From NCBI GenBank assembly GCA_040384565.1, contig JAZKJC010000005.1, forward strand, positions 76,796 through 140,795: DNA of 64,000 nucleotides. Reading direction: 5' to 3'. The notes below the pieces were generated by a model, which ran no database searches, was not told where the DNA came from, and was given only the letters and a program-made list of their open reading frames with translations. How positions within the stretch are numbered: position 1 is the first letter of the stretch; each line of letters begins with the position of its first letter. Positions 17,816 through 34,334 of this stretch are shown here, in pieces. The DNA comes from Patescibacteria group bacterium. Lineage in GTDB: Bacteria; Patescibacteriota; Saccharimonadia; Saccharimonadales; JAZKJC01. Position numbers and translations under genes: made by a program.

Positions 17816-17869
17816 GACTTCTCGTTATAACATTACTCGTCAATAATTACCAGTTGATTTTAAAAAAAC

Positions 17870-18408
17870 CTTGCCAAACCTCCCACAATATTGTATATTC
17901 AAACAACATGGAACGAAACATTATGGAGACAAGCGTACAAGTTGAAGCTGAATCTGGTGTAGCGGGCTTAGGAGTAATTACTAAGCTTACTGTACTTGGC
18001 TTAGCCGTTGTATTACTACCCAGAATGTTCATGGGTGGTGATGACCTACCCAAACCACCTACCGCTGCCACTGAAGCCTTAGCACCTGCTGGCGTAGATT
18101 TGTCACCTGAAGATGAGATAGTCGTACCTACTACTGCCACCACTACCCTCCCGCTAGAAACAGCACCCCCAGACACTGCAGCTCCAGAGGCACCACCCAC
18201 CTCAGCTACCACAGCCAAGACAACCGTAACAACCCGAGTCCGCAGCACTACTACGACAAAACCAAAGCCCGCCACCACTGCCAAGCCTACAGCCACCACA
18301 ACTCAACCAACAACTACCGCTCCCGCCATTACGGCCGCACCTCCTACAACAGCATCAACGGCCGCTCCGACTACTACGATGGCTCCGACTACTACAACTA
18401 CTCTTAGC
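17870..18408 (+). repeat. Copy A of a perfect 539-bp direct repeat
   Basis: Base-for-base identical to 19740-20278 (offset 1870 bp) in my reading. The first mismatch is at 18409 versus 20279. Confidence 0.9.
17871..17899 (+). promoter_or_regulatory. Sigma70-like promoter of MERN-family gene 1
   Basis: TTGCCA (17871-17876), 17-nt spacer, TATATT (17894-17899). The ATG follows 8 nt later with no Shine-Dalgarno sequence. Confidence 0.55.
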
Positions 18409-18837
18409 CCACAAGTGATAGCGCGCAATCAGGATTTGGCCGTAGAATCAGAAGTTGCTCAGATGCTAGCTTCAATTAAGACTCAACCTAAGACAATGGT
18501 AGTTGACACATGTCCGCTCTATGATCTTCAAAGAATTATTGACGGCCGACACTTGGTGTTAAGTGGCCTTATACCTTATGTAAAAAACAATACTCGGTAT
18601 TTTGTGGGATGGAATAGCTCAAATAATAATGCTGCCGTAGCAATACGTGAACAGTTTGTGGATGGTACGCAATACAAAATTACGTTTCCCAGTAATGGCA
18701 GAAGCCGTGAAGAAGATCCTGATATAGTGTGCGGTTTGCAATCCAGAATTGTCCAATATGACCCAGGAGATAAGAAAGTATATGGCGTACTGCCAGATGT
18801 GCATCGGGGACTCGTTGGCTTAGTTGTAGAGCCTTAG
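17908..18837 (+). CDS. MERN-family membrane-anchored surface protein 1 (TM anchor, Thr/Pro-rich stalk, Cys-pair C-terminal domain)
   Basis: I chose the start at MERNIMETS because both paralogs start there; the track's 17854 start would run through the promoter. It has the TM segment GLGVITKLTVLGLAVVLL, a T/P/A-rich region of roughly 130 aa, and a C-terminal domain with DTCPLY...IVCGLQSRIVQYDP. Confidence 0.75.
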   Translation: MERNIMETSVQVEAESGVAGLGVITKLTVLGLAVVLLPRMFMGGDDLPKPPTAATEALAPAGVDLSPEDEIVVPTTATTTLPLETAPPDTAAPEAPPTSATTAKTTVTTRVRSTTTTKPKPATTAKPTATTTQPTTTAPAITAAPPTTASTAAPTTTMAPTTTTTLSPQVIARNQDLAVESEVAQMLASIKTQPKTMVVDTCPLYDLQRIIDGRHLVLSGLIPYVKNNTRYFVGWNSSNNNAAVAIREQFVDGTQYKITFPSNGRSREEDPDIVCGLQSRIVQYDPGDKKVYGVLPDVHRGLVGLVVEP

Positions 18838-18856
18838 TAAATTACGACAAAAACAC

Positions 18857-18885
18857 TTGCATATAAAACAAGTATATGGTATATT
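18857..18885 (+). promoter_or_regulatory. Sigma70-like promoter of MERN-family gene 2
   Basis: TTGCAT (18857-18862), 17-nt spacer, TATATT (18880-18885), with the ATG 9 nt downstream. The geometry matches that of the other two paralogs. Confidence 0.5.
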
Positions 18886-18894
18886 TGAACAATC

Positions 18895-19710
18895 ATGGAG
18901 AGAAATGTAACGGCAGAAAACGAAGCTGGTGGAGCATTAACTAAGCTAGTAGGTTTATTTGCACTGTTCGCAACTGTTGGTGCAGTAGCCGGCTGGCAGT
19001 ATCTAGGCAAAGGCATAGACAAAACAACTGATGCGAGCAGAACGGCATTTGATAAAGCGGCAGAGAGCCCAACATCGATACCAGAAGTTACGTCAACTAC
19101 GACTGAGCCACCAGAAGAGGAAGAAATGCTTGCCACTACAACTACAACAAAGAAAACGGTTTCCACTACTAAAGTACCTGTAACTAAAGTACCTGTAACC
19201 ACTTCTATTAAGTCTCCCACAACAACGTCGTCAACGGCTCCCGCAGTTACCTCATCAACGACTACTGTATCAACTACAACAAAAGTTCCTACACCAGGTG
19301 AAAGGGCATACTCCCAAGCCCAGAATTTATATCAGCAGGTCAGGGGTGGAACCCGCCCAATAAGAACAATAGATAGTTGTAGGATATTGGAAGTGAATGT
19401 TACTGGCACAAACCCAGGAAACTTTATGCTCAAGGAAGTCGTATTGTTTGACGTCGGAAGTAATACGGCTGTTTTAGGCGGCTGGGTTGATGATGATAAC
19501 GCGCCTAATCACGGCGAACCGATCATTGTAGGCCATAACGCTACGATTATCTCTGACGCGCAGCAATCCACAGATCGGAAATATTGTGGGCCTCAGTCAA
19601 AGATACTGTTTTATGACCCGGCAAATACTCACCTTGAAGGACTAATCCCTGAAGCGTCTGATTTGCCCGCAGAGAAAACACCGGTCGGTACAGCTGAAAA
19701 AATCGGCTAA
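18895..19710 (+). CDS. MERN-family membrane-anchored surface protein 2
   Basis: It starts MERNVTAENE, has the TM segment LTKLVGLFALFATVGAVAG and a Thr-rich stalk. The C-terminal domain has DSCRILEV...KYCGPQSKILFYDP, aligning with paralog 1. Confidence 0.75.
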   Translation: MERNVTAENEAGGALTKLVGLFALFATVGAVAGWQYLGKGIDKTTDASRTAFDKAAESPTSIPEVTSTTTEPPEEEEMLATTTTTKKTVSTTKVPVTKVPVTTSIKSPTTTSSTAPAVTSSTTTVSTTTKVPTPGERAYSQAQNLYQQVRGGTRPIRTIDSCRILEVNVTGTNPGNFMLKEVVLFDVGSNTAVLGGWVDDDNAPNHGEPIIVGHNATIISDAQQSTDRKYCGPQSKILFYDPANTHLEGLIPEASDLPAEKTPVGTAEKIG

Positions 19711-19739
19711 ACTCATTCAAAACAATAGAATATTATTTA

Positions 19740-20278
19740 CTTGCCAAACCTCCCACAATATTGTATATTCAAACAACATGGAACGAAACATTATGGAGAC
19801 AAGCGTACAAGTTGAAGCTGAATCTGGTGTAGCGGGCTTAGGAGTAATTACTAAGCTTACTGTACTTGGCTTAGCCGTTGTATTACTACCCAGAATGTTC
19901 ATGGGTGGTGATGACCTACCCAAACCACCTACCGCTGCCACTGAAGCCTTAGCACCTGCTGGCGTAGATTTGTCACCTGAAGATGAGATAGTCGTACCTA
20001 CTACTGCCACCACTACCCTCCCGCTAGAAACAGCACCCCCAGACACTGCAGCTCCAGAGGCACCACCCACCTCAGCTACCACAGCCAAGACAACCGTAAC
20101 AACCCGAGTCCGCAGCACTACTACGACAAAACCAAAGCCCGCCACCACTGCCAAGCCTACAGCCACCACAACTCAACCAACAACTACCGCTCCCGCCATT
20201 ACGGCCGCACCTCCTACAACAGCATCAACGGCCGCTCCGACTACTACGATGGCTCCGACTACTACAACAGCTCCTACG
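19740..20278 (+). repeat. Copy B of the perfect 539-bp direct repeat
   Basis: Identical to 17870-18408. It includes the promoter (19741-19769) and codons 1-167 of the CDS starting at 19778. Confidence 0.9.
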
Positions 20279-20737
20279 ACAACTACCACTACTAGACCGC
20301 CTACTCCGTTAGAAAAGGCAAATAATTATGCAGCTTCGCTTATAAGTCAAATCCGGCAGAATCCTAATCTGGGCGTAGCTACACGAGCTAATAACTGCTT
20401 AGTGTATAAATGGGTAGATACTGCAGGAGGGCGATTACATGTTGCCGACCCCATAAGATATCGTTCAGAATCCGCAGGACGAAGTGTCTTGTATCTCATT
20501 AGCTGGAATGAACAATTTGAAAGCAAACTAGTTGCTGTTGATGCCACTGATCCTGCCGACAAAAGCCCTTACACAATCAGTACAATAGAACAAATAAATA
20601 CGGTACCTACCCCTTATTGCGGAGAAAATATCCCCAGAACACTTACATTTGCAGGAGAATATAACCGAGTGTGGGGAACTTATGCGGACAGCACAACAAG
20701 TGATACGCGTCTTGTCGGTGTTGCGAGCCCTCTATAG
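19778..20737 (+). CDS. MERN-family membrane-anchored surface protein 3
   Basis: The first 167 codons are identical to gene 1. The C-terminal domain then diverges but keeps the two Cys positions (NNCLVYKW...PYCGENIPRTLTF). Confidence 0.75.
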   Translation: MERNIMETSVQVEAESGVAGLGVITKLTVLGLAVVLLPRMFMGGDDLPKPPTAATEALAPAGVDLSPEDEIVVPTTATTTLPLETAPPDTAAPEAPPTSATTAKTTVTTRVRSTTTTKPKPATTAKPTATTTQPTTTAPAITAAPPTTASTAAPTTTMAPTTTTAPTTTTTTRPPTPLEKANNYAASLISQIRQNPNLGVATRANNCLVYKWVDTAGGRLHVADPIRYRSESAGRSVLYLISWNEQFESKLVAVDATDPADKSPYTISTIEQINTVPTPYCGENIPRTLTFAGEYNRVWGTYADSTTSDTRLVGVASPL

Positions 20738-20838
20738 CTGGTATGCTCCGCTTGTGTATACACAGGAGCATACAACGACTAACTCGCTAGGACCTTACTT
20801 TATTTGCCTAAAGAGCAATAATATAGGATAATTAAAGC

Positions 20839-21531
20839 ATGCGAAGACTAATTGCTGCGGGTTTACTGGTAACTGGGACGGCAGGACTTGCCTATGCCAA
20901 TAATGAAACCTTAAAAGCAACAGTAGATAATCAAGTAAGGGAAATATCTAAGGACGCCGTTCCTGCACTAGCTAGAGCAAAGACTGGTGTCGGTTCTGTG
21001 CTACGTTCAGTTACAGGTAGGAATGAATTGGCGGACAGTACAAATAGTTCTAAGACACTGCCTCCGGTAAGTGGTTCTGAATTAGTGGCTATTGCTGACA
21101 AATTACGGGCAATGTCAAAAGTTGTATGTAAGGGCGACTTAGTGAAGCCCGGTGAAACCACTACGACTACCACCCAAAACAATTCGGTGGAAGTTTGTGT
21201 TGACGCACCGCATGCTTATATAAAAACAGGCAGGTCTATATCTTGGTTGGTGCTTCCTCTCCTAATAGTACCGCCCTCTGGTTCTTTTGCGGTTGATGTA
21301 GTGCAAACGTACGCGAACGCCTCAGACAAGCAATGCGAGGCTCCGATAAATATAGGCAGGCCACTGGCTGAAGAAACTGTTCAAGTAAATATTGATGAAA
21401 ATGCTTTCCGCACTAAGGGTGTACCTATGCAAATAGTGCTGGATCGACATGGTTCCACACCGTGTGATGAGCCGCCTTATGAATCACATACTGGCAATCA
21501 GGCAGATCAAGGAGGCGTAAGGGCTGAATAG
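20839..21531 (+). CDS. Hypothetical secreted protein (230 aa)
   Basis: It has the signal-peptide-like N-terminus MRRLIAAGLLVTGTAGLAYA, a short poly-Thr tract and four Cys residues. No family recognised. Confidence 0.6.
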   Translation: MRRLIAAGLLVTGTAGLAYANNETLKATVDNQVREISKDAVPALARAKTGVGSVLRSVTGRNELADSTNSSKTLPPVSGSELVAIADKLRAMSKVVCKGDLVKPGETTTTTTQNNSVEVCVDAPHAYIKTGRSISWLVLPLLIVPPSGSFAVDVVQTYANASDKQCEAPINIGRPLAEETVQVNIDENAFRTKGVPMQIVLDRHGSTPCDEPPYESHTGNQADQGGVRAE

Positions 21532-21545
21532 CGGCTGGTTTATTT

Positions 21546-22394
21546 TTAGGTGCTGGGATCGGGCACTATGCCCGCATCCACCGTTAGCTTTTCAAACTGG
21601 CATTCTTGAACGGGTTTGGCATTAATGGTGATGTTACTATCAGCATTTTTGATATCTTTTATTTTATCAGTGAGTCTTGTCTTGTACGGACGGGCCGCGG
21701 AAGCTGTTGATGCAGTTGATGACCTGTCGATAGTTAGAGTTTTTAGGTTTGGCATTAATGCTTTTATGTCTTCTGCAAGGCCGTCATCGTACAGCTTTCT
21801 AATCTTAGCGGCTTCTGCTGTTTTGCCCTCCGGATAGATAAGGCATTCCGCAGCTGTGGCACTAGCCGCACTGCTAAGCTGCCACAGGTTATTAATAAGA
21901 TCACCGGGAGCACTCTTCTTGCAGGCTCCCCAGTCGCCTTTATATGTCTGGGTGGCCTTTTTTGCCAGGTTAAACCGCGGATTAAACAGCTCATAGTTGC
22001 CACTTACTGTAGCAGTCGCGTCATACCTGCCTTCACTGTCCGGTTCTGATTTTTTGACCGTAACATCGCCCATGTGTATGACTGATTCTGCTTCAAACGG
22101 GAGATTCAAACCGACAGTAAAATCACAATCAATAAATGCTGGCCGGTTATCAAAATAGCGCGCGCTAACGGGTACCACACCAGTAATCTTCCCAACTGCA
22201 AAGGCACTCAGCTTGAATACCGTAGCACTCGGTAATTCCAGTTCCGGAACATTCCTGGCGGCTTCGCGTTCGTCGTAGTTATAAAAAACTACGCTGCCAA
22301 TCTCTCTTTCAAAACCGGGCTTATTACCAAGCGCGAAAGACTCCGCGGTTAGGGCGCCGACTGCGAAAGCAAATGCGGCGAGCTTGCTGGTCAT
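21546..22394 (-). CDS. Hypothetical secreted four-Cys protein, paralog B (282 aa)
   Basis: It has the signal-like N-terminus MTSKLAAFAFAVGALTAESFA. It shares KLSAFAVGKITG, four Cys positions and a C-terminal QECQFEKLTV with the upstream gene. Confidence 0.65.
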   Translation of the reverse strand: MTSKLAAFAFAVGALTAESFALGNKPGFEREIGSVVFYNYDEREAARNVPELELPSATVFKLSAFAVGKITGVVPVSARYFDNRPAFIDCDFTVGLNLPFEAESVIHMGDVTVKKSEPDSEGRYDATATVSGNYELFNPRFNLAKKATQTYKGDWGACKKSAPGDLINNLWQLSSAASATAAECLIYPEGKTAEAAKIRKLYDDGLAEDIKALMPNLKTLTIDRSSTASTASAARPYKTRLTDKIKDIKNADSNITINAKPVQECQFEKLTVDAGIVPDPST

Positions 22395-22396
22395 AA

Positions 22397-23239
22397 TTAC
22401 TTTTCCTCCTGGTTCGGAGATAAACTTAGGCTTAACACCTTAAAATCTGTAAATTCGCAGTTGGTAGTTGGTGTACTGGTAATCTCGGTTTTCCCTTGCG
22501 ATTGCTGTTCTAGAACTACTCCTAGTTTTTTTGTATGCGGCGAGCTAGCTGGGTCGATTGCGGGGGGTATATGGATGTTAACAATAGCGGCTTTTGGGTG
22601 AGCGACTTTAACAATATCAGTCATGCTTTCTGTAACAGATGTCTGAAATTCTGGTTTAGCGAGTATACAGTCGCCCACAGTGTCGGCTGTGGCTTGTGCG
22701 ACTGGGTTCATGTCGCGCACTAGGTTAAGGCCATTGCTCACTTTGCAGTTTCCAAAACCGTAGCCTATATCGGCTTTGCTTTTAGAGAGATCGATCCCGG
22801 AGGCAATGACCGGAGGCTTATTTAAAGTAACATCTACCGTAGAGCGGTCCGGGCTTTCTACCACCGTGATATCTGACGCTCTCGCCGCAATGACCGTTCC
22901 GACTGCCGCGTATTTATTGGTTACATTTACTTCGCAGCCCAATCTATCAAATGTTCCGCTGACGGTAAATTCCGAGGTCGCTAGTCCGGTTATGAATGCG
23001 CTAAATTTGCTGACTCTGGCAGTCGGAGGGCCAATATCAATAGTTTTTTTGGCATTGGATTTATATTCAAATCCTAGGCCTGTTGCTTTCCCCGAGACTT
23101 CACCAGCAGCGTCAACTACGAACGGAAACCCGATAACACCAATAAAATTAAGAGATGCAATCGCAAGCCCGCCCATGGCAGCATTAAACCCGGCTGTGTA
23201 TGCTAAACTCCCACCAAATCTCTCAACTAATCTATTCAT
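22397..23239 (-). CDS. Hypothetical four-Cys envelope protein, paralog A (280 aa)
   Basis: It has a hydrophobic N-terminus. It shares KFSAFITGLATS, four Cys positions (GCEV, GNCKV, GDCIL, TNCEF) and an overall length matching 21546-22394. Only 2 nt separate the two genes. Confidence 0.65.
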   Translation of the reverse strand: MNRLVERFGGSLAYTAGFNAAMGGLAIASLNFIGVIGFPFVVDAAGEVSGKATGLGFEYKSNAKKTIDIGPPTARVSKFSAFITGLATSEFTVSGTFDRLGCEVNVTNKYAAVGTVIAARASDITVVESPDRSTVDVTLNKPPVIASGIDLSKSKADIGYGFGNCKVSNGLNLVRDMNPVAQATADTVGDCILAKPEFQTSVTESMTDIVKVAHPKAAIVNIHIPPAIDPASSPHTKKLGVVLEQQSQGKTEITSTPTTNCEFTDFKVLSLSLSPNQEEK

Positions 23240-23432
23240 ATGGTAGTCCTAAGTACATATGAAGTATAACTATAATATTTTGTAGCTGTCAACTATAATA
23301 TATTACAAAAAGATTAAGATTATGTATTCTCGGCCAAAATTTAAGTTTAAGGCCAAGAATTGAACATAAACTTGATTTATTGGCGTTAATGAGCTTTAAT
23401 TTAGATATACATTATGAGAGAAAATATTTTAC

Positions 23433-24401
23433 ATGGCTAGACCAACTACTCTTGACCGAACTTATGGATCCTCGCGCAGTTCATCTTCATCCTCACGCGG
23501 GGGGGGAAACCGATCCCCACGAGTATCCAGAGGGCCGCGTGGGCCTATATTTACTCGCAGAAAGCTGTTGGGTGTTCTGCTGACTGGGAGCATACTGGCT
23601 GCTGGCAATGCTAACGTTAAGGTAGATGATAAAAAATCTCCCATGGCTACAGTCGGGGGACTTTGCGTAGGAAATGAATTATGTGATAAGACGCTAGCTG
23701 TCGGCGGCAGATTAGCCGCAAAAGGCGGCAGTGTGGTTATGGCGGGTTATAGGAGCGCAACTACACCTGAAGGGCCAAAAGCTATCATAACGAGCGATTA
23801 CCCCCCAAGTGCCGACCCAAACGCGCCACCTCCCGACCCCAAAACAGCCGTAAAGTATCCGTCGGTTATAAGTAGTGGTGAATACCCGGAACGCTCAAAA
23901 GAAGATTGCGACAATAAGGTTACGGGCACAATGATTGGCAGTGTAGCCCGCTATGTAATAAATATTTATGATTACGATCCTAAAAAACCCCAAAAAGGCA
24001 TCGGTATTGGCGTAGTTATGAAAATAGAAGGTGAAGATAAAAAAAGATACGACAAAGTTAATTGTAACGACAATACAACCGAAGTAAGCGCTGGCAATTA
24101 TATAAGCTACGCTTGCAAATGGGCGCAAGATGGCGCTGCTCAGGCGGATCTGCGGGGTATAATAAAAGCTGCCCAAAAATCTCCTGAATCTATCATTCCA
24201 AAAGATGACCCAGAGGTTAGCCCAGAGCAGCTTGCAAACGCAGAAAGTGTCTATGATTCTGCCGAGTGGGGCGGAGATGGAAAAGATGATCCAGCCCGGA
24301 CAAACGTTTATGCATTTTATATGAAACAAATGCCGGATGGCCAGATGGCACCTGCGCATCTTTTTTGCGTTGACGAAAGTGTACCTGCTCCCAAGCTATA
24401 A
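23433..24401 (+). CDS. Hypothetical single-pass envelope protein with Ser/Arg-rich N-terminal tail (322 aa)
   Basis: The N-terminus RSSSSSSRGGGNRSPRVSRGPRGPIFTRRKLLGVLLTGSILAAG is followed by a Cys-containing domain. No family recognised. Confidence 0.6.
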   Translation: MARPTTLDRTYGSSRSSSSSSRGGGNRSPRVSRGPRGPIFTRRKLLGVLLTGSILAAGNANVKVDDKKSPMATVGGLCVGNELCDKTLAVGGRLAAKGGSVVMAGYRSATTPEGPKAIITSDYPPSADPNAPPPDPKTAVKYPSVISSGEYPERSKEDCDNKVTGTMIGSVARYVINIYDYDPKKPQKGIGIGVVMKIEGEDKKRYDKVNCNDNTTEVSAGNYISYACKWAQDGAAQADLRGIIKAAQKSPESIIPKDDPEVSPEQLANAESVYDSAEWGGDGKDDPARTNVYAFYMKQMPDGQMAPAHLFCVDESVPAPKL

Positions 24402-24536: not shown

Positions 24537-27059
24537 GTGGAAATTGGTCCCGACTACTTTCTGCCATCAGAGCAGAGAATCGTCCATCAAGATAAAGATA
24601 ATTCTGGAGTTGAACCAGGGGGTGTAATTAAGTGGGTTGCTACTGGCTTGTCCGGAGTTATGGGTCTCGCATTTATACCTGAAGTTACGCTTATGAGGCC
24701 CTCAGAAAGAACTGAAGTTTTGTCTGTCGGCGCTGGGAGTGAGTTAGCATGGGGTTACGCGACTATGCGGGCTAGTGATGCAGCCCCTGAAGTACTGTTA
24801 CCGGCAGCACAAGCTATTGAGTTATCTCAGCGGGTTGTGGCTGATATGGAGGGCGCACTAAGCGTGGTAGCAGCAAGCTCGCCAGTCAAACCAATAGCTG
24901 CTGCCAAGCAAGCTGCCCGTACGGCTTCTGAGTTAGAACAAGCCGCTCCAATCCAAGTGGCAAGAATGTCTGAACCGGGTCAAATGCGTCCAATAGCCGT
25001 AGCCGCTTCTTCCTCTAGGCCGGCAACGGTGATTAGGTCATCTGCACCTGCCGTCGAATCAGTAGCTTTATCTGCTCAGCATATTGTGTCCACAAAGCCG
25101 ATAGTTATGAGCATAAGGCCCAAAATGAGCGAAGCATCTGAGGCAGCTTTTGAGCCGAATACAGACAAAACGTTAAAAATAGCTGCAGCTGGCGAACGGC
25201 TTCCCGTACTAACCGCGGTGGAAACAAAGCTTGCGGCAGCTCCGCTGTCTAGTGTTACTGCTGCCACTATGCAGGAATCACCGCATTCTATAGCAGGCAG
25301 ATCATTTGTCTTGCCGATGGATAAACCGCGTAAGACAAGTGATTACGGGATGCGAGGTGGCCGCCTGCATGCAGGTGTTGACTTAGCGGATATGCATCGG
25401 GACAAGAATCCCCGTGTTAAGTCGGTAGAAAGTGGCACAGTTATAGAAGCAGGTATAAACGGCGCATTCGGGAAATACGTACGCGTTAGGCATGGCACAG
25501 ATGAGACGGGAAGAATTGTAGATACCGAGTATGCTCACTTAAGCCGTATTGATGTGCGGGAGACTCAAATTGTTGAGCAGGGACAACAAATAGGCCTTAT
25601 GGGTAATACAGGAGCTTCCAGGGGGGGGCACCTTCATTTCGGAGAGATTTGGGTGGATGGAACACATAAAAATGGTCGCCGCGTAAACCCAAACCTTTCT
25701 TTAGCCGGACGGATTTTCCCTGGTGCTGTTGTACTTGAATCAGGTGTCAGCTCTGTTCCCGCGGTAGCCGTTGAAGCCGTGGAACCTGATGTTGCTACCC
25801 AAGCCGAAACGGCAGAGTCCGCAGTTAAGGCAATTGCGGGGATAATGAGTATATCGCCGGAATCAGCCAGGATGTCACGTGCTTCGGAGCAGATTTTCTC
25901 AACCCTTTCCGGCTTAACAGTACGGCCGGTGGTCCCCAAAATAATTCAGTATCACAATGGAGACCGGCGTAATCGGCGTGGCGGCTCCCAGAGCAGCTCT
26001 GCTCCACCTGCACCGAATATGTCCGAATCACCCGAGGATGGTTTTGCGGCTAATGATGGTGCCGCAGGCGTAATGCCAATCGCTCCCAGAATACCGCAGA
26101 ACGGACAATCAGGTTCTGCTCATGAGGGATCAACCCCAGTGCCAAATACTCTCCCCACTACGGGTCCAGCGGTAACGCCACAGTCACCGAGCGGTGAAGT
26201 TGCTCCGAGCGCTCAACCGCCCCAAGCTTTCACTGGAGAACAAGCGCCTGGGCACAATGAAGATAAGAATGACAAAGAAAAGAAAGTTCCTCCGCCTAGA
26301 ATGTCCGAAGCATCGGAAGAGCTCTTTGCGGCACTTGGTGAAGGTACCGCTTTTGCTTTGGCTCTTGAGGCAGCTGAAGGAACTGGCCCTGCAGCCAATA
26401 ATGGTAATTTGCCGGTGCAGCCGGAAGCACCTCGCTCAGGCCCGGAAGCTCCAGCTATTGCCAGACTATTCACTCCGCAGGTAGTAAAACAGATGCTACC
26501 GAACGCTCCGCCGGGAAATATCGACAAGTATCTGCCTTTAATATTGGATGCCTTGCATGAATTTGGCCTGGATGACAGACAGATGGTGTTGTTCACATTA
26601 GCAACTACCGCTCCAGAAACCCCTGGCTTTGAACCTATATCAGAACGTTCAGATGGTTCCAGATATGATCCCGACCCTTCTATTAACCCTAGTGCAAAAC
26701 GGCGTGCAGTAGCTGTAAGAAACGGTAACACAACCAAGGGCGATGGTTATCGATATAGGGGAAGAGGCTTTGAGCAATTAACTTGGAAGAATAGCTACAG
26801 AGCATATGGCGATATTATTGGAGTCAACCTTGTAGACAATCCTGATCTCGCAAATGATCCACGTAACGCGGCTCGTATTATGGCGGCCTTTATAAAAGCC
26901 CGTGAAAGTCGTATCCGAGCCGGGTTGAACCGGAATGACACTAGGGATCCCCGCGCGGCTATTAATGGCGGTTCAAATGGCCTAAGCTTGTTCACAACAA
27001 CATATCAAAGAGGTATGTCCATTACGGATGAGCTGATTAGGTCTGGCCAGCCAGGCTAG
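24537..27059 (+). CDS. Membrane-anchored bifunctional peptidoglycan hydrolase: M23 (LytM) endopeptidase plus GH19-like lysozyme/chitinase domain
   Basis: GTG start preceded by AGGAG, with the N-terminal TM segment WVATGLSGVMGLAFI. M23 motifs: HAGVDLA, YAHLS, GNTGASRGGHLHFGE. After an Ala/Pro-rich linker the C-terminal region has the GH19-type pattern APETPGF...GDGYRYRGRGFEQLTWKNSY...DNPDLA...INGGSNGL. Confidence 0.8.
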   Translation: MEIGPDYFLPSEQRIVHQDKDNSGVEPGGVIKWVATGLSGVMGLAFIPEVTLMRPSERTEVLSVGAGSELAWGYATMRASDAAPEVLLPAAQAIELSQRVVADMEGALSVVAASSPVKPIAAAKQAARTASELEQAAPIQVARMSEPGQMRPIAVAASSSRPATVIRSSAPAVESVALSAQHIVSTKPIVMSIRPKMSEASEAAFEPNTDKTLKIAAAGERLPVLTAVETKLAAAPLSSVTAATMQESPHSIAGRSFVLPMDKPRKTSDYGMRGGRLHAGVDLADMHRDKNPRVKSVESGTVIEAGINGAFGKYVRVRHGTDETGRIVDTEYAHLSRIDVRETQIVEQGQQIGLMGNTGASRGGHLHFGEIWVDGTHKNGRRVNPNLSLAGRIFPGAVVLESGVSSVPAVAVEAVEPDVATQAETAESAVKAIAGIMSISPESARMSRASEQIFSTLSGLTVRPVVPKIIQYHNGDRRNRRGGSQSSSAPPAPNMSESPEDGFAANDGAAGVMPIAPRIPQNGQSGSAHEGSTPVPNTLPTTGPAVTPQSPSGEVAPSAQPPQAFTGEQAPGHNEDKNDKEKKVPPPRMSEASEELFAALGEGTAFALALEAAEGTGPAANNGNLPVQPEAPRSGPEAPAIARLFTPQVVKQMLPNAPPGNIDKYLPLILDALHEFGLDDRQMVLFTLATTAPETPGFEPISERSDGSRYDPDPSINPSAKRRAVAVRNGNTTKGDGYRYRGRGFEQLTWKNSYRAYGDIIGVNLVDNPDLANDPRNAARIMAAFIKARESRIRAGLNRNDTRDPRAAINGGSNGLSLFTTTYQRGMSITDELIRSGQPG

Positions 27060-27123: not shown

Positions 27124-28020
27124 TTAGGGAGTCTTAGGCGCAGCTGGGACTTCAAATGGTTCTAGAGGTTGGTCAAGACCTTTACAATCGGTTGGGGCTT
27201 CAAAAGTGCCTCCACGTACGTTGACTACAACACCATCATTGAAATCTCGCTCAACGTCTTTAAAAAAGGCTTTAGCACGGTCATCATCTATATTTTCATA
27301 CTGCGTATCATCAGCCGCTCTTGCCCAGGCATTAAAAGGGTATTCGTCTTTGTCTTGGGCAAAAGTTACGGTTATTGTCTGGTCTTTTGGCGCACACTCA
27401 ATGGTACCATCAGTACTTCTCCAACGGCTGGACTCAGTTGTTGGAGCTGGCAGAGTAACTGGGGATAGGCTGGTGGTTGTAGCAGCAGCCGGTTGTGTGG
27501 TTGCACTAGAGTCTTCTCCCTCTACTCTATCTACACCTGATCCGGAAGCTGAGGCTACATTAGTATCACCAAAATGTATATTGCTTGTCAAAGCAGATAA
27601 CCCAACTAAAGCAAGCACGCCCACAAAAGCACCCGCTAAGATCCTTTGTCCGTCCCGGCGCATGGCTTCACTTCTGACTGCTAAGACAGTTTTTGTTACT
27701 TCACGTCTTGGAGGAGCAACATGTCCTTTAGGGGTCTTTTTTTCCGCTTCCACAAATACGATCGGAGTAGACAATTCTTTTTTTAAGTTCGCTAAATCAC
27801 TCTTGGTTTTAGACCCGAGCCCTAATGTAAGAATCCGCCATTTAATTGGACCATAGGTATCTCTATCACTTGGGAATCGTGTACGAAAAGTCCTCTCATT
27901 AGTAAGATTGCCTGTTAATCTTTCTGGGGGACGGTTAATATGACTACCCGTTCCTGGGCGCCTTGTTTCTGTTGTTACTCTTCCACCTTTTTGATACATA
28001 TCCATAGTACTAAACCTCAC
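27124..28020 (-). CDS. Hypothetical single-pass envelope protein (298 aa)
   Basis: It has a basic N-terminal tail, the TM segment ILAGAFVGVLALVGLSALTS, a Thr-rich linker and a C-terminal domain with two Cys. A 216-aa antisense ORF exists; I preferred the minus strand because its architecture matches its neighbours and fits the operon context. Confidence 0.55.
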   Translation of the reverse strand: MRFSTMDMYQKGGRVTTETRRPGTGSHINRPPERLTGNLTNERTFRTRFPSDRDTYGPIKWRILTLGLGSKTKSDLANLKKELSTPIVFVEAEKKTPKGHVAPPRREVTKTVLAVRSEAMRRDGQRILAGAFVGVLALVGLSALTSNIHFGDTNVASASGSGVDRVEGEDSSATTQPAAATTTSLSPVTLPAPTTESSRWRSTDGTIECAPKDQTITVTFAQDKDEYPFNAWARAADDTQYENIDDDRAKAFFKDVERDFNDGVVVNVRGGTFEAPTDCKGLDQPLEPFEVPAAPKTP

Positions 28021-28080
28021 TTATATTAATATTATTACCACTAAATACCTAAGAATGCAACATTATTTAAAACCATACAT

Positions 28081-29361
28081 CTACCTTACGCGGACTCGCT
28101 GCACACGTTTAGCTACATCAGTTACTTTTCTGGCAGCCCGTGGTAACCGGCCATTGCGGGGCTCTGGAGGCTTGATTGCCGTGAATCCGGTTGCAGTAAA
28201 TCTTTCAAATGGAAAGGTGCTGGCAATCTTATGCTCGCCTGCGTCAATCGGTACTGCCACGCTACTATCTACTCCAGTTTCATCAGCCATGTGCGTATCA
28301 TCTGGGGGCTCAAGCGGTGTTTGAGGGCTGTGTTTAAGTTCACCTTTATCATCCGGTTCATCTACTGTGATAACTTCAGCAGTATTTGAGCTACCTTCAT
28401 GATCAATATAGTGAGCCAACAATAGGGCCATAGGGTGGAACTCAATCGGTTCAACCACTTCCTGTGCTTCTACTATCACGCTCGGCAAAGGATATTCCCC
28501 ATATTTTGGATCAAAGGAATTACGCCCATCGACAAAGAGCACGCCATCAGCGTCTAAGCCTAGATAGAGCTGATAATCCGCTCTATCCTCCGCAATTATG
28601 GGCAGTTCATCACGGCCTATAGGTTGTATTATTGGATGCTCCACATCCGGATCGTACCGAACACCATGCATCCTTAGCACTTCATCAGCAGTGGGGGTAG
28701 CCAGAGTAACGCCCCAGCCACTGGGAGTGTTCGGGTCAAAAAAACTTTGGTCTCCTATCATGACGCTCCGTATACCACTGCCATTTTCACCATCTGCCTC
28801 TTGTCTTGCCATTGCCATGAGCTGTTCCAGGGTTTCTCTTCTAGAGCCGTCAGACCCATCGGCAAAATGTGAGTTATTTAGCAGGCCGCCGACTACTGTT
28901 TCAAGATTACGGTGGCCAGCAACTCCTACAAACAAAGGCGAAAGTTCCCTGACACGGTCGGCATCCAGATCTTCTTGCAAGGCTTTTGTTGTTATACGGC
29001 TAGCATAGGCCGGATCATCAGTGCCGTTAGGAACAACTACTTTCAGGCATGCTATAACGCCTACACCGAAACTTGCTTCTATAGGGATCGGCTGCCCATC
29101 AATAAAGCGGGTACCTTCTGCTAAAAGTAACGGCATAGCAGTCGTATCTAAAGCAACAGTTTCACGGCCAGTCTGGACGAATTGCTGCATATAAGCGTCT
29201 TCAAAGCCTGCTTCTCCAGGAAGCATAGGAACTGATATGCACCGGCTATTCGAACCATCAACCAGCGTTTGCCCGTGCACGTAATCAGGCGACAAAGCAG
29301 CATCAGTACTTGCAGAGTCTGGCTTAAACATCTCGGCTAGGGAATGAGGAGTTTTTATCAT
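28081..29361 (-). CDS. Hypothetical soluble acidic protein (426 aa)
   Basis: Long ORF whose start overlaps the upstream stop by 4 nt (ATGA at 29358-29361). I saw no TM segment, Walker motif or other recognisable motif. Confidence 0.6.
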   Translation of the reverse strand: MIKTPHSLAEMFKPDSASTDAALSPDYVHGQTLVDGSNSRCISVPMLPGEAGFEDAYMQQFVQTGRETVALDTTAMPLLLAEGTRFIDGQPIPIEASFGVGVIACLKVVVPNGTDDPAYASRITTKALQEDLDADRVRELSPLFVGVAGHRNLETVVGGLLNNSHFADGSDGSRRETLEQLMAMARQEADGENGSGIRSVMIGDQSFFDPNTPSGWGVTLATPTADEVLRMHGVRYDPDVEHPIIQPIGRDELPIIAEDRADYQLYLGLDADGVLFVDGRNSFDPKYGEYPLPSVIVEAQEVVEPIEFHPMALLLAHYIDHEGSSNTAEVITVDEPDDKGELKHSPQTPLEPPDDTHMADETGVDSSVAVPIDAGEHKIASTFPFERFTATGFTAIKPPEPRNGRLPRAARKVTDVAKRVQRVRVR

Positions 29362-31541
29362 GAGCCAAGTCCTAATTGCTCCGGTAGATTATTGCGCTTC
29401 ACTGGCCGGCCAATATTACGGGCTACTTTGGTTTCGCTGTCCGGCTGCTGTCCCGAGCGCCAGCTTAGTACCTTATGTCCATGCAACAATACGCCGGATA
29501 AAGCGACTTCGCTTTCAGATAAAGGTTCGCCTGTGGGTTCGTACTGACCCTCTAAACCCTTCAGCGTTGCTTTATCATATCCCAGCTTATTCTTTTTTGC
29601 GGCGATATCGCTTCTGGTGGCTATTGTTCGATGAACGCGCACCGACTGTCCATCTGCCGTTCGGACAAACAACACGCCGTCGCCTTCGGCAATTGAATCT
29701 TTTACTTTTGTATGTATTTTTGGCCCTGAGCGGGAATTAACCCGTTGGATTCGGGTTGGAGCGAACCGGCGTTGCAAAGGCTGTTCGGTAAGCATTTCTA
29801 CAAGTGTGGGATGGTAGGGTAGTGCCGCTGGCTGGGTTTCAAAATAATTCATTCCTTCATTTAATACTCTAAGCAGTCTTCCAGGGGCAGCAAGGGCATC
29901 AACAATGAGGAATTTGCGTTTTCGCATATCACCATGTTTGGAAGTTACCTCCACATGGGCGGCAAGCCCAAACATCATATTTTCTTTATGCGGATTCCAG
30001 AATGATTGTAATAACTCCTCAATATAATAACCATGAGGCGCGGAGTGGGGCATAACGTCTCCGTCTCTGTACACCACAGTGCCCTTTATGCCAGCTTTAT
30101 CAGGATCCGTTTCATTCATCGATATACGTCTAAACAGTTCATTGCCCTGAGTAGCTTCCATAATAAATCTGACGTCAAAAGGAAGCTTGCTGTATTTGAT
30201 ACTTACTCCAGACGCGTCCATTTCATAAGCTTCGTCATGCAAAGTTTTAGTTGGGTCCTCCGCGTCATAGAGGTCACGGAAAAATTCTATATCAAATGGA
30301 TCCATGCCCCTTAAAAAGGCGCGCATAGGATTCGGGATCCTAACGTTTTTTATATCTTCTATGGCTTGTACGTAGCCTTTGGATTGCTCTACGTGGTGGC
30401 CGTATCCTAGTGCTTGCATGACTGCCCGCCGGATGTTGTCGCGGCGGTTTTCTATACGGGCAAGCTCGTGGTCCAGTTGGGCTCTGGAAGCTTGTTTTGC
30501 TTCATCATCCTCTGCCGGCTTATGCTTATAATCTGCCTTTATTGCCGCTTCTTTCCGGTCTTCTGTGAGCATGGCATTATAGCCGCGGCAAGGAATACTC
30601 CAGTCCGCGGGTGTAACACTATGAAATCGGTAAATCTCAATCAGTTTGAGGACAGCAGCGTTGATATTTCTTTTCTTGGCGGTGACATAGTGCGCGGCGT
30701 TATCAAACCGGAAATCTCCTGCTACATGCATATCATGAAATGTCTCCATAAGCGTGTCTACGATTTTTCTGTATCTGTCTTTGTCCTTAAAATCTTCCGC
30801 GAACTCTTCCGCGAAGCGTAAGCCGGCTGCCTTGAGCCAACCCTCTTCCATAGGTGGCACCTCATCTGGATCTATCTGGGATAGTAAGTCCTCTGGCGGG
30901 AGGTCAAGTAACTGAAAATACGCGTCCCAGTGATTAATATCGGTGTCAGCCAGTACGCCGGCTAGCCGCCATTCTCCTTGACCTTTAATGTGATCCATAT
31001 GCCCCAAAGGTCCTGGTGTGTCTTCATCCAATTCGAACACTAGAAGACAGTTACTAAGCTCCTCCAGTACCGTGCCCTTATGTTCTGCTTTGGCCCTCAA
31101 TACGGCCGCCTGGCGGTAAATTTCTCCTTCTGCCCAGTCTTCATCAAGTACCGCATGAATTACTTCTTCGCTTGATCCGCCGCCAGAAAGCGGCCCTATG
31201 CTGGTTCTTTCCGTATGAACACGGCCGTGCACAGCCCAAGCGGGATCCCAGTTTTTAAACTCAACAAGGATTCTAGGAAACGCGACGTCGTGAAACAAGT
31301 CGTCATAGCCTTCGCCTAGCGCAACGTAACCTATTGCCACGGAAGAACGCCACTCCTCCAATGGGCTACGCTCACGTCTCAAAGCGTTTGGATCCACTTG
31401 AGAGGCAGAAAACCTCAACAGCTCCTCATGGGTGAGACCTGCCCCCAGGACTTCCGCAGCGACTGCCGAAGCTGGAGTAACACTACTTTCTGGCGTACCC
31501 ACAGGTGACACTGATGTTCCCGGTGCTTCTACATTTGGCAT
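29358..31541 (-). CDS. Hypothetical soluble protein (727 aa)
   Basis: This is the longest orphan ORF in the window and the first gene of the minus-strand unit. I recognised no nucleotide-binding or catalytic motif. Confidence 0.6.
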   Translation of the reverse strand: MPNVEAPGTSVSPVGTPESSVTPASAVAAEVLGAGLTHEELLRFSASQVDPNALRRERSPLEEWRSSVAIGYVALGEGYDDLFHDVAFPRILVEFKNWDPAWAVHGRVHTERTSIGPLSGGGSSEEVIHAVLDEDWAEGEIYRQAAVLRAKAEHKGTVLEELSNCLLVFELDEDTPGPLGHMDHIKGQGEWRLAGVLADTDINHWDAYFQLLDLPPEDLLSQIDPDEVPPMEEGWLKAAGLRFAEEFAEDFKDKDRYRKIVDTLMETFHDMHVAGDFRFDNAAHYVTAKKRNINAAVLKLIEIYRFHSVTPADWSIPCRGYNAMLTEDRKEAAIKADYKHKPAEDDEAKQASRAQLDHELARIENRRDNIRRAVMQALGYGHHVEQSKGYVQAIEDIKNVRIPNPMRAFLRGMDPFDIEFFRDLYDAEDPTKTLHDEAYEMDASGVSIKYSKLPFDVRFIMEATQGNELFRRISMNETDPDKAGIKGTVVYRDGDVMPHSAPHGYYIEELLQSFWNPHKENMMFGLAAHVEVTSKHGDMRKRKFLIVDALAAPGRLLRVLNEGMNYFETQPAALPYHPTLVEMLTEQPLQRRFAPTRIQRVNSRSGPKIHTKVKDSIAEGDGVLFVRTADGQSVRVHRTIATRSDIAAKKNKLGYDKATLKGLEGQYEPTGEPLSESEVALSGVLLHGHKVLSWRSGQQPDSETKVARNIGRPVKRNNLPEQLGLGS

Positions 31542-31780
31542 AAATTACTCGTTCGAGATGTTATTGACATATGACAACCCTAATTCACTTTCAATTTTTC
31601 CATCAAACCATGGATAGAAACATAATGCAAGGGTTTGGTGTGTAGTTTGCAACGTTTACATCTGTTGATGTACCAGATTTTTGTAGAATTTACTACGACT
31701 ATTTTGACAATCAATCAATTAGGGTGTTGAATGAACTGTATCAAAAATGAACGATATATTATCTATATAAGGAGGTAGTT

Positions 31781-32071
31781 ATGGCTGATAGTGCAAAACC
31801 AGGATTCGTACGGATGGCAGTTGAATGGGGTTTAGTGGTTGGAGTCGGTGTTAGTTCGTTTATTGGACACCAAGATCTTGCCGGTCAGCATGAAGAACAC
31901 TCGCCCGGTGTTATAAAAACGGTGGGGCATGCTGTATTAGATCATGCGCGCGTATTTGGTATAGCGGAGCCATCTCCTACTCACGGCGCCAAACACGAGG
32001 GACAATTATTTGGATATGATATTTTGGGTCTTATATCGCTGGGTGGTTATATGTACGCAAGAAGGAGTTAA
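31781..32071 (+). CDS. Hypothetical small His-rich membrane protein (96 aa)
   Basis: A strong RBS (AAGGAGG) precedes the ATG. Two hydrophobic segments flank a loop containing eight His residues. Confidence 0.5.
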   Translation: MADSAKPGFVRMAVEWGLVVGVGVSSFIGHQDLAGQHEEHSPGVIKTVGHAVLDHARVFGIAEPSPTHGAKHEGQLFGYDILGLISLGGYMYARRS

Positions 32072-32180
32072 GAATGGTCGTGCTCCAGACTTAAATTTGA
32101 CAAAATAGCTATTGCGTGATTAATTACGAATGTAGTTATGTGGAAAAGTTTAAGTTATTAATATATATCGAGGTAGTGGT

Positions 32181-33755
32181 ATGAGAGCTGAACAAGGATA
32201 TGGCGACAAGACAAGACGAGTAGGCTTAGTAGGGGATGACGGGTCATTAGAAGATCCAGGAGTATTATCAGCTCCAGAAGCAGATCCATCGACTAGTATG
32301 GCCGCGTTATTTTCTCACGCGCCCGGTGTGGATGTGATTGAAGCTGAAAGTAGTGGAAGTGGAGTCCATAGATTTGTAAGCGAGGTTGCTGGCAGGGAGC
32401 CTTTAGAGATGACTTTACCCCACCCCACAGTTAATCTTCCTGGTGCTGGTGCTCACGAAGCTGGAGATACTGCCTTAGCAGCTAATGCACGACCAATTGA
32501 AGTAGATATTGACCCTAATGGAATCATGGGTGAAGTAATTGTTACTGCTCGTGACTTGCAACTCACAAAAGCAATGGAGCATAGAGATGCTTTGAGTTTA
32601 TGGCAGCGTAGAGACGCTAAATTTGCTAATGCGGTTCCAGTTGAGCCCTATGGACTTAGATTTGACGCGCAGGACGCGGCTACCACGCAACTCGTGCGAC
32701 TATTACCTCCTGTGCTAGTGGAAGTAACGGACAGTATTTTTGCTGAGGTTTTAGATCCACTAGCGCGTGGCCATTCAGAGGCGAATTATGTAGTTAAATT
32801 TGGTGGTGTAAAGGATGGAAAAAAAGGAGTTGAAGAAAGATTCTTTGGAAATCGTGTGCCCCACAAAGTGATCGCAGGGCGCAATGAACGTCTTGCTGAT
32901 CTGACTCAGGCTTCTGGCAAGGTAGGCTTGGAGAGTGTAGCTGCACACCCAATTGATCCAAACGCAGCTACAGTTAGAGCGTTAAAAACGCTAGGCGTAC
33001 CCATTGCTTTAACGATCCAAGAGAGAATTGTTGTAGATGATGAAGAAATAACCAGGGACAGAACTTTTGTTGATGGTATGAAATTTGCACTTGCCGTAGA
33101 AGGAAAAGTGCCAGTTCCAATGACTGCTGATATGGAAAATGCATTAGCAATGGAGGCGGAATTGCTGACAGCGGAAACAGATGGTTCGGAAGCACCTATA
33201 AGTCCGTTAAATGTTGTGTTAACAAGCGCATTGAAAGTAATAGCCAGGCGCGATACTGTGTTTAGGATAAAAGGCGGTAGGGGCAGCACGTATGAAACGC
33301 AGCTCTTAATTGCGGCAGATGATGGATCAAGGTTATTACTTGCAGGATCACCGGAATTAACTCAAGCGCCAGGCAGCCGCCGTGAGCCCGTTGTATTAAC
33401 TGAAGTAGGAGCATTCGCAATACATCCTAATATTGTTGATAGCGTCCAGCAGCATTTGAATGGACAAAGAACCAATGAAGAGGTGCCGGTAGAAGCAGGA
33501 TTAGGGGCAAAAATCAAAAGAGCTCCGCGTGTTGAAGCTGATCTTATTGGTATAACTGAAGGTTTGATGAATGCACAAAGAGTTGGTATTAGAGGTACTA
33601 AGGTAGAAATAAGATCCCCCCGACGCAGAGTAAGCAATGTTCAAGCAGCTGCGCAGCTGGCAATTGAAGCTTCTCCAACTGATGAGCCTGAAGTCTCTGG
33701 AGATGATCTACTCAGTGGAACAACAGATGACGTTCATCGCGAACTTTCAGAGTAA
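32181..33755 (+). CDS. Hypothetical soluble acidic protein (524 aa)
   Basis: Long ORF with the RBS GAGGTAGTGG before the ATG. No TM segment or known motif recognised. Confidence 0.6.
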   Translation: MRAEQGYGDKTRRVGLVGDDGSLEDPGVLSAPEADPSTSMAALFSHAPGVDVIEAESSGSGVHRFVSEVAGREPLEMTLPHPTVNLPGAGAHEAGDTALAANARPIEVDIDPNGIMGEVIVTARDLQLTKAMEHRDALSLWQRRDAKFANAVPVEPYGLRFDAQDAATTQLVRLLPPVLVEVTDSIFAEVLDPLARGHSEANYVVKFGGVKDGKKGVEERFFGNRVPHKVIAGRNERLADLTQASGKVGLESVAAHPIDPNAATVRALKTLGVPIALTIQERIVVDDEEITRDRTFVDGMKFALAVEGKVPVPMTADMENALAMEAELLTAETDGSEAPISPLNVVLTSALKVIARRDTVFRIKGGRGSTYETQLLIAADDGSRLLLAGSPELTQAPGSRREPVVLTEVGAFAIHPNIVDSVQQHLNGQRTNEEVPVEAGLGAKIKRAPRVEADLIGITEGLMNAQRVGIRGTKVEIRSPRRRVSNVQAAAQLAIEASPTDEPEVSGDDLLSGTTDDVHRELSE

Positions 33756-33800: not shown

Positions 33801-34334
33801 ATGTTGAGGCTTCAGCGAGAACCCCGTACGCCGCGCTTTGTTCCGGACTATCTGGCCCGGTCTGTTGAGGCTGTGGATTTTAAACAGCTTGCCGATCAAG
33901 GTATCCGCTATATCGCCTTTGATGCTGACAGTACGCTGGTTAACTTCCGTGGGCGGGAACTATCACCAAGTACGAAGTTGTTTTTGCAAAAGCAGCGCAA
34001 ACTGTTTGATAAATGGTGTATTGCCAGCAACCGTATCACCAATGATCTATTGCCTTTGGCTGAAAGCATGGACGCGCAGGTCATCCGCGCGTCTTTGTGG
34101 ACTCGCAAGCCATCCCGCCGGTTTTTTAACACTGTATTGACATTTTTTGGCGGCAAACCGCAGGAGATAGCCATGATAGGCGACAAGCTCATAGCTGATA
34201 TATGGGGGGCCAAACGGGCTGGCATGGTTACCATATGGGTGGAAAAGATTGGTCAGGATAACCCGTTGGACTGGATATTCCGGGTGCGGCAAATAGAAAA
34301 ATGGCTCATGAGAGCCTACAGGCCCAAAAAATGA
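33801..34334 (+). CDS. HAD-superfamily phosphatase, YqeG-like (subfamily IIIA)
   Basis: HAD motif I FDADSTLV, motif IV-like IGDKLIADIWGAKRAG, and the size are all typical of the YqeG family. Confidence 0.7.
   Translation: MLRLQREPRTPRFVPDYLARSVEAVDFKQLADQGIRYIAFDADSTLVNFRGRELSPSTKLFLQKQRKLFDKWCIASNRITNDLLPLAESMDAQVIRASLWTRKPSRRFFNTVLTFFGGKPQEIAMIGDKLIADIWGAKRAGMVTIWVEKIGQDNPLDWIFRVRQIEKWLMRAYRPKK

Follow-up and report, generated by a model that had tools for sequence, protein, structure and literature searches.

Gene organization at the locus

The 64,000-nucleotide (nt) stretch analyzed here, referred to as the window, lies on contig JAZKJC010000005.1 in the metagenome-assembled genome of a Patescibacteria group bacterium of the soil Saccharimonadales, and all positions given below refer to it unless another locus is named. 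The subject of the analysis is a run of three minus-strand genes, A, B, and C, together with the neighboring genes that accompany them. Gene A (29358..31541) encodes 727 amino acids (aa) from an ATG start, a protein that is acidic and soluble, carries neither a signal peptide nor a transmembrane (TM) helix, and is the founding member of its family in the present study. Gene B (28081..29361) also starts with ATG and encodes 426 aa. Both products are recorded publicly as hypothetical proteins, V4702_02420 and V4702_02415, respectively. Gene C (27124..28020) encodes a bitopic protein of 298 aa if read from a GTG or, likelier, of 293 aa from the ATG at 28005. The list of open reading frames (ORFs) places the frames of 727, 426, and 298 aa on the minus strand exactly where the initial annotation had located them.

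At the junction between A and B the minus strand reads ggctcATGAtaaa, in which the ATG of B and the TGA of A share positions 29361-29358 (ATGA), and direct reading of the sequence confirms the overlap described earlier. An AGGA motif resembling a Shine-Dalgarno sequence is situated within the 3′ end of A, 8 nt upstream of the start of B. The presence of a real overlap together with this motif is consistent with translational coupling of the two genes. The spacer between B and C amounts to 60 nt with the GTG start of C and to 75 nt with the ATG at 28005. The latter appears the likelier start, since it is used in the public gene call and is preceded by GTGAGG 9 nt upstream, so that the previously reported gap of 60 nt holds for the GTG reading only. 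The product of C crosses the membrane once, as had been proposed, with the TM segment at approximately residues 127-145 in the 298-aa reading.

Divergent from A lies a further gene, designated up (32181..33755, plus strand), the product of which is an acidic, soluble protein of 524 aa with an isoelectric point (pI) of 5.0. The AT-rich region between A and up (31542..32180) holds a 96-aa ORF (31781-32071, plus strand) with a strong AGGAGG ribosome-binding site and hydrophobic segments. Its product displays no similarity to the small ORFs at the same place in two related loci (L091 and L082), and its membership in the module is therefore uncertain. Scanning for promoters and terminators, this region included, gave nothing above the shuffled background. 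On the other side, gene C is convergent with a peptidoglycan hydrolase gene (24537..27059, plus strand, 840 aa). Further on are seven genes for membrane-anchored or secreted proteins of 230-327 aa (17854..24401) and, at the far end of the conserved cluster, the gene for a class A penicillin-binding protein with glycosyltransferase and transpeptidase domains (PBP1a, 15719..17815, minus strand).

Conservation of the gene cluster

Word-indexed searches of 5.8 billion proteins with A or B as the query returned only the query itself, as did the profile of A family alignment A1. An exhaustive phmmer (HMMER) scan of 1.84 billion cluster representatives with A recovered 18 relatives at E-values from 9e-25 to 8.5e-4 and 22-30% identity, 271-774 aa in length (mostly 600-774), all of which align over their full length (alignment A1, 19 sequences including A of the window). 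Most of these are singletons from soil-type metagenomes; one is labeled Saccharimonadales and one Limnocylindria, the latter probably being mis-binned because its flanks match the window. The description of A and B as orphans in the initial annotation holds to the extent that no relative above about 30% identity exists among the 5.8 billion proteins, but not beyond, since distant syntenic homologues were found for both. Judged by its full-length homology over some 600-774 aa and its retained position beside up, B, and C, A is a new and rare protein family.

The contigs of 11 relatives of A, together with the window, provided 12 independent loci. The layout shared among them comprises a divergent up gene (400-640 aa), A (~600-770 aa), B (320-430 aa), and C (230-320 aa). 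The up gene stands ahead of A in all 11 loci that reach upstream. In 11 of the 12 loci a same-strand gene in the position of B follows A at -4 to approximately +90 nt, with a 4-nt overlap in three, a co-occurrence that leaves the earlier pairing of the two genes unrefuted. In every locus that extends far enough (7/7: the window, L082, L083/84, L085, L086, L094, and L095) a peptidoglycan hydrolase gene lies downstream and convergent with C; in L082, a small LysM+CHAP gene is also present on the opposite side. The hydrolase gene is followed by genes for small membrane-anchored proteins, several of them with a Thr/Pro-rich linker and a Cys-containing C-terminal domain, and the cluster ends with PBP1a in the window, L083, L085, and L086. 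On the evidence of retained gene order, A, B, and C behave as one conserved unit embedded consistently in an envelope neighborhood. The proposal that they form a single operon agrees with this order, which is kept across independent loci, and the link to an envelope module, resting on synteny, extends beyond adjacency in a single genome.

The surroundings of the block are less constant. It adjoins UvrC in the window and in L083, but LytR_cpsA_psr in L085-L090. In the window, a rhodanese/UPF0176 gene (13993-14850) and uvrC (34301-35905) are 19 kb apart, with the cluster from PBP1a to up between them; in 63 of 80 related species (loci L002-L081) rhodanese abuts UvrC without the block. These two placements, and the species that lack the block, indicate that the entire block has relocated on at least one occasion. 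Searches of the 80 related UvrC loci by tblastn and hidden Markov models detected none of the genes A, B, C, and up. UvrC of the window, 2.8 kb from A, is 62-76% identical to that of the 80 species representatives, nearly all of which are labeled Saccharibacteria or Saccharimonadales.

The hydrolase, the surface proteins, and PBP1a

The hydrolase of the window consists of an N-terminal membrane anchor, a Peptidase_M23 domain (Pfam, 3.7e-21), and a C-terminal lysozyme-like domain of GH19/endolysin type, matched by Glyco_hydro_19 at 7e-5 (below the cut-off) and by the PHROG endolysin phrog_181 at 1.5e-31 over residues 645-828. Its domain composition changes from locus to locus: M23 with the GH19/endolysin-like domain in the window (24537-27059), M23 in L085, CHAP+glucosaminidase in L083 (14217-16145), VanY+glucosaminidase in L086 (14211-16667), VanY+Phage_lysozyme2 in L095 (4273-6516), and a glucosaminidase with a separate PG_binding_1 gene in L094 (5884-7516). 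The position is kept while the catalytic domains change, which looks like cassette-style domain replacement. That the hydrolase remains fixed in place despite these exchanges suggests selection on both its activity and its position rather than simple inheritance.

Several of the surface proteins encoded between 17854 and 24401 possess an N-terminal TM segment or signal peptide, and three of these also have a long linker rich in Thr and Pro and, at the C-terminus, a domain containing Cys. The 230-aa member is homologous to a 209-aa protein of L083 (2e-8), and in L083, L085, and L086 the interval from the hydrolase to PBP1a also encodes proteins comparable in size and orientation. PBP1a itself is matched by Pfam Transgly (4e-42) and Transpeptidase (6e-17), its SxxK, SxN, and KTG motifs are visible, and it is only 23-32% identical between loci.

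Two side observations concern this region. A perfect direct repeat of 529 bp occurs at 17870-18398 and 19740-20268, so that the surface genes at 17854-18837 (327 aa) and 19778-20737 (319 aa) share an identical N-terminus, TM segment, and Thr/Pro-rich linker and differ in their C-terminal Cys domains; the repeat is either the product of a recent duplication or gene conversion event or an artefact of assembly. Beside PBP1a, a 262-aa membrane protein (14934-15722, plus strand) carries a Ser/Thr-rich linker and a C-terminal two-Cys domain resembling the layout of the C ectodomain, to which its own ectodomain may be paralogous in type.

It may be asked whether the association with cell-wall genes is a historical accident, A, B, and C being a cytoplasm-and-membrane system with an unrelated role (for example signaling or storage) and keeping their place by inertia. 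Only about a dozen loci from related lineages are available, and all may descend from one ancestral arrangement. The arrangement has, however, persisted although sequences diverged to approximately 20-25% identity, the whole block relocated at least once, and the hydrolase exchanged its catalytic domains. Survival through all three makes neutral linkage unlikely, and we regard an accidental association as unlikely overall.

Evolutionary rate of the cluster

Comparison of pairs of loci demonstrates a marked gap in identity between the cluster and its flanks. When the window is set against L083, identities of 78.6% for UvrC, 56% for the M24 peptidase, and 46% for the GDSL lipase stand beside 24-28% for A, B, and up. 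Between L085 and L086, LytR is 61.5% and ABC-F 68% identical, against 24-29% for A, up, the hydrolase (24%), and PBP1a (29%). This gap implies that the whole cluster, its cytoplasmic proteins included, evolves several-fold faster than the flanking genes. Such a rate suggests that the module operates at a contested or exposed surface or interface. Actinomycete hosts are reported to direct Esx effectors against Saccharibacteria and to remodel their own surfaces (PMC13622651).

The same features could be expected of a system of defense against phages or host attack, located by chance in a variable surface island and composed of A, B, and C, with or without up. The genes are fast-evolving and patchily distributed, and multi-gene operons of uncharacterized proteins that include a membrane protein are found in many defense systems. 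Against this, no PADLOC model matches A, B, C, or up, the only match being PglX at E = 0.0024 on an unrelated 282-aa protein. Domains or motifs of effector type, such as those of nucleases, NTPases, TIR, SIR2, or proteases, were not recognized, no defense genes are adjacent, and the consistent partner is a cell-wall hydrolase. A defensive role is accordingly considered highly improbable.

Sequence families and predicted structures

No sequence from A, B, C, or up, whether taken singly or as any member of its family, gave a match at or above threshold in Pfam, NCBIfam, PHROG, or PADLOC, and searches of PDB sequences with single proteins and profiles gave no match. Comparison of the A, B, and up profiles by hhalign demonstrated that they are mutually unrelated. 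The initial annotation had described A and B as acidic and soluble, which is borne out by pI values of 5.6 and 4.6; more broadly, most members of the A, B, and up families have a pI of 4.5-6.4 (the highest being 8.7), and none of the three families has a hydrophobic segment that is conserved. Its remark that the two proteins lack familiar signatures can be extended, Walker A, HExxH, and DEAD motifs being missing from A, B, and every other ORF of the cluster.

The AlphaFold2 (AF2) model of A, built from the 19-sequence alignment, reached a mean predicted local distance difference test (pLDDT) score of 79.7 and a predicted TM-score (pTM) of 0.83. It is predicted to run from a disordered N-terminus through an alpha/beta domain, a helical bundle with a 53-residue helix, and a second alpha/beta domain to a beta-rich C-terminal domain, with long helical hairpins between the alpha/beta domains. 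Foldseek found no match to this model in the PDB (best E 0.11, TM-score ≤0.10) or in BFVD (best E 0.075, TM-score 0.11); the top PDB entries were generic helical bundles with TM-scores <0.12, and no P-loop fold was matched. A fold predicted with confidence and with no known match is, along with the divergent fourth partner up and the very fast evolution of the cluster, a point absent from the initial annotation. In alignment A1, G139 is invariant and G525 nearly so, these being the only such residues, and no conserved constellation of Asp, Glu, His, Cys, Ser, or Lys was found. The restriction of near-invariance to glycines, without a catalytic constellation, argues that A is structural rather than catalytic. 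Residues 185-255 of A match Pfam DUF5691 at E = 0.002 (18.1 bits, below the gathering cut-off of 27 bits), a match given by 1 of the 19 members.

Protein B is predicted to consist of a folded core (residues ~60-320), an acidic, Pro-rich disordered linker of approximately 100 aa, and an Arg-rich C-terminal peptide. Foldseek of its model against the PDB gave no significant match, the best insignificant hits being capsid jelly rolls. Like A, B carries no signal peptide. A TM helix in B was considered and rejected, the hydrophobic stretch at 92-110 being a predicted beta-strand that is not conserved. The last 25 residues have a net charge of +3 to +9 in six of seven aligned members. The later members from L094 and L095 have short Arg-rich ends but are net negative over the same span; the Arg-rich peptide itself is present in eight of nine members, for example as RVQRVRVR, NRRLWQR, or KRRVWKR. 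For A, the C-terminal net charge ranges from -7 to +8 across homologues, and a conserved basic tail on A of the kind found in type IV secretion system (T4SS) substrates was rejected on that ground. The earlier statement that both proteins end in basic tails is therefore correct for the source genome, and across homologues applies to the B family and not to the A family.

In C of the window, a basic cytoplasmic N-domain (pI 10.9, net charge +13) leads via a single TM helix and a linker rich in Ser, Thr, and Pro to an acidic ectodomain with two Cys residues. This architecture is constant in all nine members: the cytoplasmic domain is basic (pI 9.4-11.3, net charge +3 to +17), there is one TM helix, and the ectodomain is acidic (pI 4.1-5.2), with the two Cys residues present in seven. 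Residues 120-272 match Pfam DUF7261 at E = 2.8e-4 (21.6 bits, below the 27-bit cut-off) over a region that spans the TM helix and the low-complexity linker. The N-terminal part of the up protein is variable and disordered, and its C-terminal domain of approximately 300 aa is conserved. The protein has no Pfam family and is homologous to the genes in the same position in L090 (4.7e-21), L082 (2.8e-8), and L085 (2.5e-7), with many other links (alignment A4).

Effectors, secretion machinery, and mobile elements

The C-terminal peptide of B invites an explanation in which A and B, perhaps with up, are host-directed effectors or are exported by a non-Sec route, for example a patescibacterial T4SS, while C and the hydrolase assist delivery through two walls. 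VirB/D4 substrates bear Arg-rich C-terminal signals, which the C-terminus of B recalls. The positive charge of this peptide in most members, the long disordered regions, and the extreme divergence of all cluster proteins, as in an arms race, accord with such a role. Moreover, saccharibacterial T4SSs, which lack recognizable relaxases and coupling proteins, may export proteins (PMC10633639), which was counted in its favor. The machinery and the expected marks of effectors are missing, however. No AAA/VirB4 match was obtained with Pfam in the cluster or related loci, where VirB6 and PrgI are absent too. Neither VirB6/PrgH-like nor PrgI/VirB3-like proteins, nor a pilin array, were found by Pfam, and the membrane proteins of the cluster have at most two hydrophobic segments. 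A bifunctional hydrolase of VirB1 type is present (M23 with a lysozyme-like domain, 840 aa), a feature that alone is not diagnostic. No toxin or enzymatic domain and no immunity-gene pattern were seen, and the basic tail of A is not conserved. The divergence of A is even along alignment A1 and not concentrated in the C-terminal part, as would be the case for a C-terminal toxin module. Furthermore, the tight coupling of translation and the presence of a dedicated bitopic partner are more in keeping with a complex that stays in the cell. Export as effectors is thus judged rather unlikely.

A hidden ATPase was also considered and rejected, as no Walker A motif occurs in any of 15 cluster ORFs. 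Similarity to cytoskeletal or divisome proteins (the actin fold of FtsA/MreB, the tubulin fold of FtsZ, spectrin-like EzrA, and GpsB/DivIVA) was found neither in sequence nor in fold in the PDB searches.

In 63 of 80 related species the two genes that flank the cluster are direct neighbors, and its presence here as an insertion of 19 kb raises a different possibility, namely a domesticated or decayed mobile or phage-derived module, in which A and B would be unrecognized virion or transfer proteins and the hydrolase a captured lysin. The resemblance of the hydrolase to endolysins and tape-measure-associated peptidases, its cassette-like domain swapping, a noise-level match to Portal_Mu (E = 0.07, below the cut-off), and the capsid jelly rolls among the insignificant fold matches of B all point in this direction. 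They are opposed by the content of the block, in which integrase, terminase, capsid, relaxase, and ATPase are lacking: no Pfam integrase or terminase domain occurs between 14.9 and 33.8 kb, and tRNA genes are more than 6 kb away. The PHROG search of A, B, C, and up gave 0 matches, tblastn with A and B as queries gave none in 50,697 phage records, the comparison of A with 72,556 plasmids and with IMG/VR patterns gave none, and BFVD was equally empty. The block also holds an apparently functional PBP1a, and its order recurs in divergent chromosomes. A foreign island was rejected, since GC content and GC at third codon positions (GC3) do not set the block apart from the genome as a whole and other chromosomes contain it too. 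An origin as a mobile module is therefore regarded as quite improbable.

Proposed role of the module

The explanation favored here, put forward tentatively, is that A and B, perhaps with up, form a non-enzymatic cytoplasmic scaffold tethered via C to a lineage-specific module for remodeling the cell wall and surface. A and B would be structural proteins of the cytoplasm, made together from one translationally coupled message and probably joined by the divergent acidic up protein. The complex would dock at the inner face of the membrane onto the basic cytoplasmic domain of C, and the Arg-rich C-terminal peptide of B, on its long disordered linker, may provide a second point of attachment, either to anionic lipid or to a partner. 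The opposition between the acidic A, B, and up proteins and the basic domain of C, together with the Arg-rich end of B after its linker, points to such a docked, membrane-proximal scaffold. The ectodomain of C would couple the complex to the extracytoplasmic half, that is, the bifunctional peptidoglycan hydrolase, the mucin-like surface proteins, and PBP1a. As a whole, the putative module would be specific to Saccharimonadales and would place or control local opening of the cell wall, its synthesis, and surface display, likely where the epibiont is in contact with its host or with phages, which would account for the very fast divergence. We infer both the physical contacts and the actual function of the module. 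The suggestion in the initial annotation that A and B are a cytoplasmic component or effector of the neighboring surface module gains from the envelope neighborhood found by synteny in many loci and loses the basic tail of A, which is not conserved.

Several observations weigh against a scaffold of this kind. In locus L082, B is missing and a C-type gene (5468-6424), with a basic N-domain, a TM helix, a Pro-rich linker, and a two-Cys domain, directly follows A, the homologue of A there being the shortest full-length one in context (607 aa). Cytoplasmic scaffolds normally evolve slowly, and the extreme divergence of A and B is unlike that of a housekeeping scaffold. The cluster contains no ATPase or other energy source. 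The structure model of B is of low confidence, and sequence conservation within the C family is barely detectable, which lends the family weak support. In the cultured Southlakia epibionticum, the genes flanking PBP1a display no such cluster, so that the module is not general to Saccharibacteria. Finally, conserved synteny is not proof of shared function, and PBP1a, as a housekeeping gene, could be a stable neighbor.

Beyond the scaffold, it is conceivable, though we think it unlikely, that up, A, B, and C together with the hydrolase, the mucin-like proteins, and PBP1a constitute an unrecognized trans-envelope apparatus, ATPase-free, built of new folds, and specific to a lineage of soil Saccharimonadales, which would mediate contact with the host wall or its breaching.

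Other features of the window

The remainder of the window is ordinary chromosome, with ribosomal protein L25, ABC exporters, DNA ligase, tRNAs, and a histidine kinase. At 3070-12060 on the minus strand, five paralogous ABC exporters are encoded in tandem, each with fused transmembrane and nucleotide-binding domains (583-609 aa, 29-42% mutual identity), and a short related fragment lies at 13-465; other Saccharimonadales also carry ABC exporters upstream of rhodanese. Between these exporters and rhodanese lies the gene for a 557-aa low-complexity protein (12309-13982, plus strand), rich in Lys/Glu and Pro/Gly, that ends in one hydrophobic tail anchor, has no Pfam family, and is conserved in 30 related loci at approximately 40% identity. 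The stretch of lowest GC content (44-48 kb, 0.38-0.40), which may be a small island, contains an Rfam DUF3800-IX RNA match (45904-45973, minus strand; 52 bits against a gathering score of 36.8).

Comparison with known systems

Patescibacteria account for a large part of bacterial diversity, and approximately half of their genes have no assigned function. To our knowledge, the building of the epibiont envelope and engagement of the host wall in Saccharibacteria are known only in fragments, such as type IV pili and a T4SS-like system. Against this background, three anonymous ORFs have become a testable object, with four new protein families, a fixed operon layout, and a link to a peptidoglycan hydrolase and PBP1a. 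If the module does organize wall remodeling at the host interface, it would represent a new kind of envelope machine and a marker of arms races with hosts or phages in soil epibionts. If it does not, the alignments still supply profiles for annotating a recurrent cluster of genomic dark matter.

The proteins of the cluster define families, and for A a predicted fold, outside anything catalogued. Genes lacking an assigned role are common in such genomes, and the function proposed is one that we infer. The Pfam families approached most closely, DUF5691 by A and DUF7261 by C, are themselves without assigned function, and both matches are weak and local.

Among characterized machines, the VirB1-like proteins PrgK, TraG, and CwlT and the peptidase and lysozyme genes next to virB4 in the T4SS of Southlakia epibionticum, all specialized lytic enzymes of monoderm envelope machines, offer one likeness, a large membrane-anchored protein with peptidase and glycosidase domains beside the proteins of an apparatus. 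The present cluster differs in having no VirB4, VirB6, PrgI, pilin array, coupling protein, or Walker A motif, and the T4SS locus of S. epibionticum differs from it in gene content. The patescibacterial T4SSs described previously (PMC12102498 and PMC10633639) are not the same system. A further likeness is found in hypervariable ("flexible") genomic islands of the cell surface, such as the cell-wall island of Haloquadratum walsbyi (PMC4535781), where a block of envelope and surface genes also outpaces its flanks and undergoes cassette-like domain replacement. The cluster departs from that type in its retained gene order and families and in its soluble cytoplasmic proteins, a component not known from such islands.

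Membrane-tethered scaffolds, namely RodZ-MreB with penicillin-binding proteins, EzrA/GpsB-PBP1 in Firmicutes, and FtsEX with PcsB/CwlO/RipC, form the third point of comparison. The cluster has no likeness to them in sequence or fold and lacks both an FtsE-like ATPase and an actin or tubulin fold; its evolution is far faster than that of any housekeeping scaffold, and it occurs only in some soil Saccharimonadales. What it would share with them is solely the proposed logic, by which soluble proteins are connected through a bitopic protein to a class A penicillin-binding protein and a hydrolase, with the genes kept together. By the same kind of analogy, the tether-and-hook layout predicted for B, a folded core, a long disordered linker, and a short basic terminal peptide, resembles that of the FtsZ C-terminus.

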